DNA of 9,852 bases. Source: a virus (lineage: Duplodnaviria; Heunggongvirae; Uroviricota; Caudoviricetes). Positions 3,744-5,034 of this stretch are shown here, in pieces. A program made the translations under genes and the position numbers. How positions within the stretch are numbered: the stretch's first letter is position 1; every line of letters begins with the position of its first letter. The notes below the pieces were generated by a model. It did no database searches and was not told the origin of the DNA. It worked only from the letters and a program-made list of their open reading frames with translations. The DNA lies in IMG/VR virus record IMGVR_UViG_2778261346_000016, positions 1-9,852 of that record; one strand, 5' to 3'.

Positions 3744-4393
3744 TGGTTGCCTCCTTTGCGAAGCTGGGCAGCAAAGTCAACTAACCACTCAGTCATTTCA
3801 ACCTTCCCTACCAGGTCTGAACCAGGGTGCATACAGCAATCACTCTGCGCCGCTTTGAAATCCTTATACTCATATTCTTGGGCCACCAGATTTTTTGCAG
3901 CTTCTATAGCAGCATCCACCCCCTGCGCCCGCACTTCAGACAGGAAAGCATCGGTAGCTGGAGTTTCGCTGTGGTGCAGGGCATCGTTGATAATCATTGC
4001 AGCAACTCCGGCCTGCCCTGCATCCGTGACCGACACATGCTCAAGAGTTACGGCCATTGCGTGTTTCAGCCCAGCGTTCTCTGCCACCAGCGCAGCGAGA
4101 TTAGTCTCAAGCTCTGAAATTCGGCACGTGGCATCAATATTTGTGTCCTCCAAGCACTTAATTTCACCAAGCAGCTCCAGTGCAACCTTTGGGTTGAACG
4201 CGGCAACATGACGAGCGTTGTTCTCTGCATTTTTCTGTCCATCAAAGCCGGTCCATTTGATAACGTCTTCACATCGTTCATCACCGGGCGTGTGCACCGC
4301 ATAAGTACCAGTATCCGTCGAAATAAATGCGACCCATTCGTCTGGTGTTGCCTTTTCTGCCGCCTCACGCAGTACCTGATAGTCAATTGTCAT
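3740..4393 (-). CDS. Ea22-like family protein, 217 aa
   Basis: Preferred start is ATG 4393..4391 (GAAGGA SD about 8 nt upstream, ATGA overlap with the upstream stop) rather than the track's ATG at 4402. Contains motifs LVAENAGLK and [11 protein letters not shown], shared with the gene at 5332..5793. Confidence 0.6.
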   Translation of the reverse strand: MTIDYQVLREAAEKATPDEWVAFISTDTGTYAVHTPGDERCEDVIKWTGFDGQKNAENNARHVAAFNPKVALELLGEIKCLEDTNIDATCRISELETNLAALVAENAGLKHAMAVTLEHVSVTDAGQAGVAAMIINDALHHSETPATDAFLSEVRAQGVDAAIEAAKNLVAQEYEYKDFKAAQSDCCMHPGSDLVGKVEMTEWLVDFAAQLRKGGNQ

Positions 4394-5034
4394 TCTCGCC
4401 ATCCTTCACAGTTGTAATCACTACAGCCTTCAAAATCATATGGGCTGTACTGCCAGGTTATTTTTCCGCAATGCGGACAATTCCAACGCACCTTCCCGCT
4501 TCGCGACTTCTTTCTTCTGTTCTGCTCTTTCAACCAGTCAGGCATGACCAAACCTGCGCCCTGAACCATTGTTCTGCGGTTAAAGTTATTGATATTGAAC
4601 GTCCGGCGCTTTGCTGCATCAGCAATGGAAAATGGCAACCAAACTATTCCTGGTTCGTTTTTGTTGACGACGCTAAAGATGGTCGCTTTACTGAAGTCAT
4701 CTGTTGGCAATCCACCGTGTTGAAGCCAGTAAACATCGTTGCCGTTCCAGCTACCTTTTTTGTAGGCCACATACTCAGTGCAATCTGACTCAATCAGGCT
4801 TTCTGTAGGGATGTACTGGCAATCAACGTGCCACACTGCCATTGTATCCACACTATCGGCACAAACAGGCTGATCTATATCTCGCCCACAATTCCAGGCT
4901 TTTTGGGCTTCTTCCAGCGTGTAAACATGAGCGAGATCGATATCAGAACTGTAACCATTGCCGTTATGGCAATGGAATGAAGCGTTATTACCCACAGTTT
5001 CACGCGAGCACATCATGTAAAAACGGTTACTCAC
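4390..5034 (-). CDS. Cys/Trp-rich hypothetical protein with C-terminal CxxC...CxxxxC cluster, about 214 aa
   Basis: Track ORF 4390..5127 trimmed. A GTG at 5034..5032 sits 7 nt after AGGAGG in the same RBS-start cassette seen at 3739..3759; an ATG-ATG at 5016..5011 is the alternative start. C-terminus WNCPHCGKITWQYSPYDFEGCSDYNCEGW; N-terminal FHCHNGNGY. Confidence 0.5.
   Translation of the reverse strand: MSNRFYMMCSRETVGNNASFHCHNGNGYSSDIDLAHVYTLEEAQKAWNCGRDIDQPVCADSVDTMAVWHVDCQYIPTESLIESDCTEYVAYKKGSWNGNDVYWLQHGGLPTDDFSKATIFSVVNKNEPGIVWLPFSIADAAKRRTFNINNFNRRTMVQGAGLVMPDWLKEQNRRKKSRSGKVRWNCPHCGKITWQYSPYDFEGCSDYNCEGWRE

Follow-up and report, generated by a model that had tools for sequence, protein, structure and literature searches.

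What is the protein encoded at positions 4390 to 5034, on the minus strand, of the virus record IMGVR_UViG_2778261346_000016 (IMG/VR), and what might it do for the phages and plasmids that carry it? We analysed a stretch of 9,852 nucleotides (positions 1 to 9,852 of that record), which we call the window. It corresponds to the leftward early (pL-type) part of an Stx2c-converting lambdoid prophage, and it is 100% identical to Stx2_5044 over its full length. An initial annotation, made from the sequence alone, described the product as a Cys/Trp-rich protein with a zinc-ribbon-like C-terminus and suggested a metal-binding protein that interacts with nucleic acids or is HNH-like. We find that most of the protein consists of two copies of one module, for which we detected no relative in Pfam, NCBIfam, PADLOC or PDB, and that a basic helix and a putative zinc ribbon follow. 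The family, phrog_2457 (Upf87.6 in phage P7), was already catalogued, with no function assigned. What is new is the internal duplication, the lack of a structural relative, the exchange of Cys for His at one ligand, and the distribution of the family from phages to plasmids. The features that we will refer to are these:

4390 to 5034, minus strand: complete coding sequence of 214 codons plus TGA, a member of phrog_2457 (upf87.6 of P7), from the list of open reading frames (ORFs), the PHROG profile, the P7 annotation, and the ratio of nonsynonymous to synonymous substitution rates (dN/dS).
5041 to 5045, minus strand: Shine-Dalgarno sequence GGAGG, read from the sequence, six bases ahead of the GTG start and within the 3' end of the upstream gene.
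4801 to 5034, minus strand: repeat 1, residues 1-78, from hhalign, conservation and the structural model.
4951 to 4977, minus strand: FHCHNGNGY, residues 20-28, a structural hairpin or turn of repeat 1 whose Cys and His are variable.
4555 to 4785, minus strand: repeat 2, residues 84-160, from hhalign, a hidden Markov model (HMM) of repeat 2, and conservation.
4483 to 4554, minus strand: basic linker and helix, residues 161-184, from a charge calculation (net charge about +6, isoelectric point 11.6) and the model, which has a helix at 166-178.
4393 to 4482, minus strand: putative C-terminal zinc ribbon, residues 185-214, from Cys conservation and sub-threshold matches to eL43/L37a profiles.
4477-4479, 4468-4470, 4423-4425 and 4408-4410, minus strand: codons of the predicted ligands C186, C189, C204 and C209, from the sequence.

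To judge from its conservation, this is a genuine gene under purifying selection, and the initial annotation was right to single it out. The phrog_2457 profile covers the whole protein: residues 1-214 align with positions 1-220 of the 222 in the profile (E = 1.6e-117). The identical 214-residue protein is recorded on 674 contigs. The dN/dS is 0.16 relative to the P7 copy and 0.11 relative to the copy in IME10, and it is 0.07 between the P7 and IME10 copies. The GTG start (5034-5032) shares bases with the TAA that ends the upstream gene (GTGAGTAA), the stop is the TGA at 4392-4390, and the ATG (4402) of the downstream Ea22-like gene lies 13 nucleotides inside the 3' end of our gene. Because its GGAGG lies within the end of the upstream gene, translational coupling is implied. 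We saw no promoter-like or terminator-like sites on the minus strand between 3600 and 6000, so the gene reads as an internal, translationally coupled cistron, and it is probably coupled to both of its neighbours. An in-frame ORF extends further upstream, to an ATG at 5127, but we do not think that this start is used, because the annotated homologues have 214 residues and the family alignment begins with M-[SKQ]-[ND]-R-F-Y. We regard an antisense ORF of 153 codons (4327-4788, plus strand) as a probable shadow ORF, since it has no support of its own and the conservation is carried by the minus-strand frame.

Residues 1-160 are a tandem duplication of an alpha/beta module of about 75 residues. 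The duplication was first suggested by distant members of the family. When columns 1-80 of the family profile were aligned with columns 81-165 (hhalign), the probability was 98.3% and E was 1.4e-14 over 69 columns. Furthermore, the HMM of repeat 2 detects repeat 1 in every homologue examined, with domain E values from 1.5e-8 to 2.9e-4. When HMMs of the module were run on the window and on a set of loci with homologues, no further copy that stands alone was found. In a model from AlphaFold2, which was run with a 36-sequence alignment (predicted local distance difference test 93, predicted template modelling score 0.76), each half consists of a long hairpin, a helix (shortened in repeat 2), a strand, a helix, and a strand, and these are followed by helix 166-178 and short terminal strands. 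Repeat 1 has modelled strands at 5-14, 17-22, 54-58 and 67-71 and helices at 40-49 and 59-65. Its conserved core is F20-[WH]21...G25-x-G27-Y28-[T]-[TS], A35, A43, R51, D54, P56 and D71-x-Q73, and repeat 2 conserves G98-N99-D100, A117, P134 and K142-R143. In an alignment of 69 sequences that are 21-48% identical to the query, the invariant columns are D71, Q73, G98, N99, C186, C189 and C204, and at least 90% of the sequences retain G15, G27, Y28, P56, A117 and R143. When we compared the model to 350,542 chains with Foldseek, the best E was 0.31 and the template modelling (TM) score was 0.18 at most. A search of BFVD returned only uncharacterised phage proteins, some of which have 60-85 residues and match a single module.

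The N-terminal FHCHNGNGY that caught the eye of the initial annotation is indeed present, at residues 20-28, but it is neither a metal site nor a catalytic one. Among 88 diverse relatives, just 5 have Cys at C22, where most have Ala or Gly, 63 have Trp in place of H21, and H23 varies. The residues that are kept are the glycines and the tyrosine (G25 in 76, G27 in 83, and Y28 in 86), and the conserved core at this place is F-[WH]-x3-G-x-G-Y-T-[TS], a hairpin or turn element. In the same 88 relatives, none of the Cys outside of the ribbon (9, 22, 49, 58, 72 and 85) is conserved, and neither is any His: H21, H23, H36, H69, H106 and H188 are all variable.

The cysteines at the C-terminus are another matter. 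The protein is rich in Cys (10 residues, or 4.7%) and Trp (9, or 4.2%), as had been noted, and it ends with CPHCGKITWQYSPYDFEGCSDYNCEGW at residues 186-212, within which CPHC-x14-CSDYNC spans 186-209. (The spacing was originally given as CxxC-x17-CxxxxC, but only 14 residues separate C189 from C204, and CxxC-x14-CxxxxC is correct.) Of the 88 relatives, 85 keep C186, 86 keep C189, 85 keep C204, and 74 keep C209, and all four are retained in relatives down to about 25% identity. Among the 206 members with at least 190 residues, 183 contain CxxC-x12-19-C-x2-5-C. In the second pair, Cx4C prevails, and 52 of the 183 have the canonical CxxC knuckle. We inspected 20 of the 23 members that do not fit the pattern: about 6 look frameshifted or cut, and most of the others have CxxC-x14-CxxH, with His as the fourth ligand. 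Exchange of Cys for His at one ligand fits a metal site rather than a disulfide or a chance cluster. The model places short strands (182-185 and 192-195) around the first Cys pair and isolated bridge residues near the second. So, as far as sequence goes, the zinc ribbon that was originally proposed is supported, as C4 in most members and C3H in a subset.

The ribbon is preceded by a basic tract throughout the family: the median net charge of the 25 residues ahead of the first Cys is +7. When compared to PDB, the family profile had only sub-threshold matches, to C2H2 fingers and to eL43/L37a (E = 0.014-0.04, profile residues around 177-222), and the NCBIfam model for the IS1/IS1595 zinc domain matches the protein at E = 0.027, which is also below threshold. 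That the protein interacts with nucleic acid, as the initial annotation had it, is a reasonable expectation. Some representatives of 157-183 residues stop after repeat 2, with neither the basic tract nor the Cys pairs. These could be truncated gene calls, but they suggest that the duplicated domain is the core of the protein and that the ribbon is an add-on. As an aside, a search of PDB with the single sequence yielded only a non-significant likeness (E = 1.5) between the ribbon (residues 178-212) and the very start of archaeal alanyl-tRNA synthetase (2ztg and 3wqy: CPKCGKHFW...P...CGDPPCE). This is probably a convergence of short zinc-ribbon motifs.

Can the protein be placed in a known family? 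The initial annotation could not do so, and this holds for Pfam, NCBIfam and PDB, but the protein does belong to the catalogued and uncharacterised phrog_2457, and all 69 distant relatives match the phrog_2457 profile too. Scans of the protein with Pfam, NCBIfam and PADLOC, and of the 69 relatives with Pfam, gave only sub-threshold matches to generic zinc fingers. PADLOC had no match at E ≤ 0.01 for the protein or for six neighbouring genes. We searched the literature on phrog_2457 and Upf87.6 and found nothing. Among 150 representatives, three are extended at the N-terminus (P0191, P0194 and P0269) and one at the C-terminus (P0202), and none of these extensions contains a Pfam domain. The protein does not belong to the Ead/Ea22-like family (PF13935): it has no match at E ≤ 1, while the genes at 2991-3743 and 3740-4402 match at 2.7e-29 and 2.6e-23. 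Nor do we believe that it is a Lar-family protein, as BLASTP against a Lar-family protein, taken from a plasmid on which a homologue is also present, gave E = 0.18.

Where is the gene found? A word-indexed search found 148 clusters of homologues, all "hypothetical," from Enterobacterales, Acinetobacter and Methyloprofundus. When 1.84 billion representatives were searched exhaustively with the profile, 954 proteins matched at E ≤ 1e-3 and 218 of these at E ≤ 1e-10, and a scan of genomes added Alteromonas, Shewanella, Rheinheimera, Pseudomonas, Stutzerimonas and one Undibacterium. As sampled, the family is confined to mobile DNA of Gammaproteobacteria and some Betaproteobacteria. Among 5426 complete E. 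coli genomes, 279 carry the gene; 109 of its places are chromosomal and 180 are on plasmids, mostly replicons of about 90-100 kb. The gene is also in 415 plasmids from PLSDB. At the DNA level, the copies in P7 (97.7%), P1-type records, SJ46 and IME10 are 95-98% identical to ours. Separately, we noticed a 95%-identical copy at 72226-72852 of Escherichia phage Av-05 (KM190144 / NC_025830), a 120-kb phage that was isolated on O157:H7. A copy of a temperate-phage gene in this phage could be a horizontal acquisition or an assembly mixture.

The contexts that we could examine are these:

Phage P7: the homologue is in the hea operon, behind a C1 operator.
Acinetobacter prophage: the order is cI, cro, a small gene, the homologue, and a DUF1376 replication-type gene.
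Metagenomic temperate phage: the homologue is between an S24 repressor and an integrase.
Phage-plasmid: the homologue directly follows a cro-like gene.
Pantoea phage-plasmid: the homologue follows umuDC.
Three metagenome contigs: the homologue directly follows an NAD-dependent ligase.
Citrobacter MOBH plasmid: the homologue is in a one-directional array of about 30 kb, with about 45 small genes after mobI, along with DinG, a Lar-family gene and CcdAB.
Providencia and Klebsiella oxytoca MOBH/MPF_F plasmids: the homologue is in similar arrays, about 2 kb from PsiA.

In all six of the phage or phage-plasmid contexts that could be interpreted, the gene is, by location, in an early operon, which in the temperate phages adjoins the immunity region. 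No recurrent partner gene emerged from eight look-ups of genomic context or from a comparison of 125 flanking ORFs in 33 genomes to Pfam. Most of these ORFs have no listed Pfam family, and the commonest families were integrase (three times) and DndB, DUF5131, UmuC, DUF4406 and Ead_Ea22 (twice each). Since no neighbour recurs, the constant feature is the type of location, an early or entry-proximal accessory segment, and the protein probably acts alone. Two of these contexts deserve a further remark. In the three independent contigs with the ligase, the homologue (at 7001-7630, 3836-4465 and 2870-3499) begins about 50 bp past a full-length LigA and is followed by a conserved ORF of 257 codons. 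And in Citrobacter NZ_CP133848, the array at 75-107 kb, after mobI(A/C), is nearly all hypothetical proteins, with a HAD protein and a RES-Xre pair as well; it looks like a large accessory island of the leading-region type.

What, then, might the protein do? It is a stand-alone, cytoplasmic protein that is restricted to mobile DNA and is placed in early segments. Our favoured reading, which we hold tentatively and at somewhat less than even odds, is that it is a non-enzymatic factor, tethered to nucleic acid, that helps incoming DNA to establish itself. It would be made at the start of infection, induction or transfer. The basic helix and the zinc ribbon (residues 161-214) would probably tether it to nucleic acid, and the duplicated (pseudo-dimeric) module would be the working part, recognising either a DNA structure or a host protein of DNA processing or defence. 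The net effect may be to aid the establishment of incoming DNA, via counter-defence or by modulating repair or the SOS response, by a protein that would fall in no recognisable enzyme class. A bolder version, which we consider unlikely but worth stating, is that the module is a new fold and that the protein is an unrecognised establishment or counter-defence factor, which would be anchored on incoming DNA (single strands or ends) by its basic helix and zinc ribbon and would use the pseudo-dimeric module to block or divert a host nuclease, RecA and the SOS response, or an immune sensor.

Several observations weigh against an establishment factor. No homology to any characterised protein backs a specific activity. 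The N-terminal domain is only mildly acidic (net charge -6), unlike Ocr and ArdA, so it is not a DNA mimic of that kind. Some relatives seem to be without the zinc ribbon, so tethering is not essential in every member. That the plasmid arrays are true leading regions is deduced from the presence of mobI and PsiA. Finally, D71, Q73, N99, D100, R143, R51 and Y28 are almost invariant at around 25% identity, which would also fit a catalytic or small-ligand site.

This last point leads to the alternative of a new type of enzyme that acts on nucleic acids or nucleotides, with a site that is formed by D71 and Q73 from repeat 1 and N99, D100 and R143 from repeat 2, and with the zinc ribbon delivering it to its substrate. 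In sets of 69-88 relatives, at an identity of about 25%, there is no variation at D71, Q73, G98 or N99 and hardly any at R143, Y28 or P56, and the repeats are asymmetric in these residues, as expected if there were one composite site between them. Also, DNA enzymes (LigA, UmuC, DinG) are often neighbours. However, there is no match to any catalytic family or fold, the G-N-D is in a hairpin turn between modelled strands 88-97 and 100-103 and may be purely structural, and there is no conserved His, Cys, Ser or Lys nucleophile beyond the zinc site. On balance we doubt that it is an enzyme; whether the invariant polar residues cluster is the key discriminator between a binder and an enzyme. Another idea is that the protein is an accessory factor for the replication, recombination or repair of the phage or plasmid itself, for instance by binding single-stranded DNA, nicks or ends beside the element's own replisome or recombinase, and does not act against host defences. 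In its favour, the homologue directly precedes the DUF1376 replication-type gene after cro in the Acinetobacter prophage, it is beside LigA in three contigs and beside umuDC on a phage-plasmid, our copy is in an operon with erf, ssb and abc2, and the P7 copy is two genes from a primase-annotated gene. Yet in the 33 genomes surveyed, the neighbours include no recurrent gene of replication or recombination, the position varies between the pL side, the pR side and plasmid arrays, and most such phages and plasmids do without the gene, as its presence in so few of the complete E. coli genomes makes it accessory. We think that this explanation, too, is probably not the right one.

It seems improbable that the protein reprograms transcription or translation as a zinc-dependent regulator, bound to RNA polymerase or to a particular site on nucleic acid in the manner of lambda Orf73/TraR, P2 Ogr or Mu Com, and biases the choice between lysis and lysogeny. 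The protein has no profile or fold match to the DksA/TraR (lambda Orf73) or Ogr/Delta zinc-finger regulators. The CxxC...Cx4C spacing is reminiscent of Ogr. C4 zinc proteins are known from the same lambdoid region, namely the TraR-like Orf73 and Ea8.5, which has a homeodomain/zinc-finger fold (PMC8614690). Other genes of the exo-xis region are reported to affect lysogenisation and induction. The HNH-like nuclease that the initial annotation raised, in which Cys and His would hold a catalytic or structural metal in a beta-beta-alpha fold, is very improbable. Its appeal is that the Cys-rich C-terminus has beta-hairpins and that some HNH nucleases have CxxC pairs, and one low-ranking Foldseek match is to the beta-beta-alpha-Me enzyme Hpy99I. 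But this match is at the level of noise (E = 0.66, TM = 0.11), there was no HNH match for the query (E ≤ 1) or for the 69 relatives (E ≤ 0.01), and the model has only strands past residue 178, so there is no helix after the C-terminal hairpins. Without a conserved His in the family, the HNH reading fails. We give almost no credence to the remaining proposal, which comes from the P7 record, where upf87.6 (5001-5645 of the P7 stretch examined) is a "putative tyrosine protein phosphatase." This rests on a short HC(X5) motif in FHCHNGNGYSSDI. That string fits a PROSITE-style protein tyrosine phosphatase pattern, [LIVMF]-H-C-x2-G-x3-[STC]-[STAGP]-x-[LIVMFY]. But the would-be nucleophile is C22, which as described above is rarely Cys; the position of the CX5R arginine is Tyr28, which is nearly always kept; and there is no phosphatase match in Pfam or NCBIfam and no match to the tyrosine phosphatase fold. 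The P7 record's note looks wrong.

The rest of the window fits an early operon. All of its long ORFs are on the minus strand. They include N-like, cIII-like, kil-like, erf and SSB-like genes; abc2 (anti-RecBCD, 5965-6258, phrog_656); a block of genes of unknown function; two Ead/Ea22-like genes; a DUF551 gene; and, at the left end, an AlpA-type (excisionase-like) helix-turn-helix gene. From the excisionase-like gene to abc2 (272-5811, minus strand), every gene belongs to a PHROG of unknown function or has only Pfam's DUF551 or Ead_Ea22, so about 5.5 kb of the early operon of this Stx phage has no assigned role. The initial annotation had placed our gene between Ea22-like paralogues, and this is borne out: the two Ead_Ea22 genes are downstream, and the 159-residue protein upstream (5332-5811, minus strand) has an 'AENxGLK...TPATDAFL' segment in common with the Ea22-like protein at 3740-4402 (minus strand; BLASTP E = 1e-7). 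The 159-residue protein does not match Pfam's Ead_Ea22, and the common segment reflects modular shuffling among Ea22-like genes.

Farther downstream on the minus strand, three small basic ORFs of unknown function overlap each other from stop to start: 2457-2645 (62 residues), 2642-2818 (58 residues) and 2815-2991 (58 residues). The first two are tandem paralogues (phrog_1380, both starting with MKNRKAK), and the third is phrog_13831. Another profile, phrog_9263 (230 residues), spans the 62-residue ORF at 2457-2645 (profile positions 1-61) and then the 195-residue ORF at 1940-2527 (profile positions 58-230), so some phages annotate these two as one protein. In our window there is a stop at 2457 and then an ATG at 2455, which is Met25 of the listed ORF 1940-2527 and is probably the true start of a protein of 171 residues.

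Why might this family matter? The gene is common, and it moves between mobile elements as different as temperate phages, phage-plasmids and conjugative plasmids, always in segments that are probably the first to be expressed. Its carriers include the Stx2c prophages of enterohaemorrhagic E. coli, P1/P7-type phage-plasmids (often with resistance genes), and large MOBH plasmids of Citrobacter, Klebsiella and Providencia. Families with such a distribution in early segments are good candidates for establishment or anti-defence functions that have gone unrecognised. The gene studied here is one of many early genes without an assigned role, but as such a candidate it is well defined and can be tested. 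If the protein is only another small DNA-binding accessory protein, then its importance is modest. The prediction of the duplicated domain is confident, and no relative of it has been solved or annotated. In practical terms, the domain map of the protein and the targets for mutation are now defined, and the phosphatase note on P7 is corrected.

How does the protein compare to known systems? Its closest relatives are Upf87.6 of P7 and the other members of phrog_2457 in SJ46, IME10, the Stx2c phages and P1-type phage-plasmids, which are the same family and differ in nothing of kind. Its C-terminus is like the C4 ribbons of nucleic-acid-binding proteins (eL43/L37a and, more loosely, the N-termini of Lar-family and IS1/IS1595 proteins) in having two Cys pairs, here predicted to lie on short hairpins, after a basic stretch. 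But it matches all of these below the family thresholds, its second knuckle is Cx4C in the enterobacterial branch, and its N-terminal domain of 160 residues has no counterpart in them. Lambda Ea8.5 (a homeodomain/zinc-finger hybrid, PDB 2M7A) and Orf73 (TraR-like C4) share its niche in the early leftward operon, between the recombination genes and xis, and both bind zinc and are poorly understood in function (PMC8614690). They are single domains of 70-95 residues, whereas our protein has 214 residues and a duplicated module, and no sequence or fold similarity was detected. A further comparison is with the establishment and anti-defence genes of plasmid leading regions (PsiA/PsiB, ArdA, Lar, SSB): on large MOBH plasmids, homologues and PsiA or a Lar-family gene are in the same one-directional arrays of small genes, about 2 kb apart at most for PsiA and 6 kb for Lar. 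This likeness is by location only: the protein has no homology to a known anti-defence protein, it has no PADLOC match, and it is not strongly acidic. So the protein appears to be homologous to none of Ea8.5, Orf73, Lar or the PsiA-type genes, and has only the niche in common with them. Published work shows that the leading regions of plasmids have an excess of anti-defence genes and of uncharacterised families, and that about a tenth of these families have phage-associated annotations (PMC11541004), and phrog_2457 is likewise common to phages and plasmids, as was reported for part of the leading-region families in that study.

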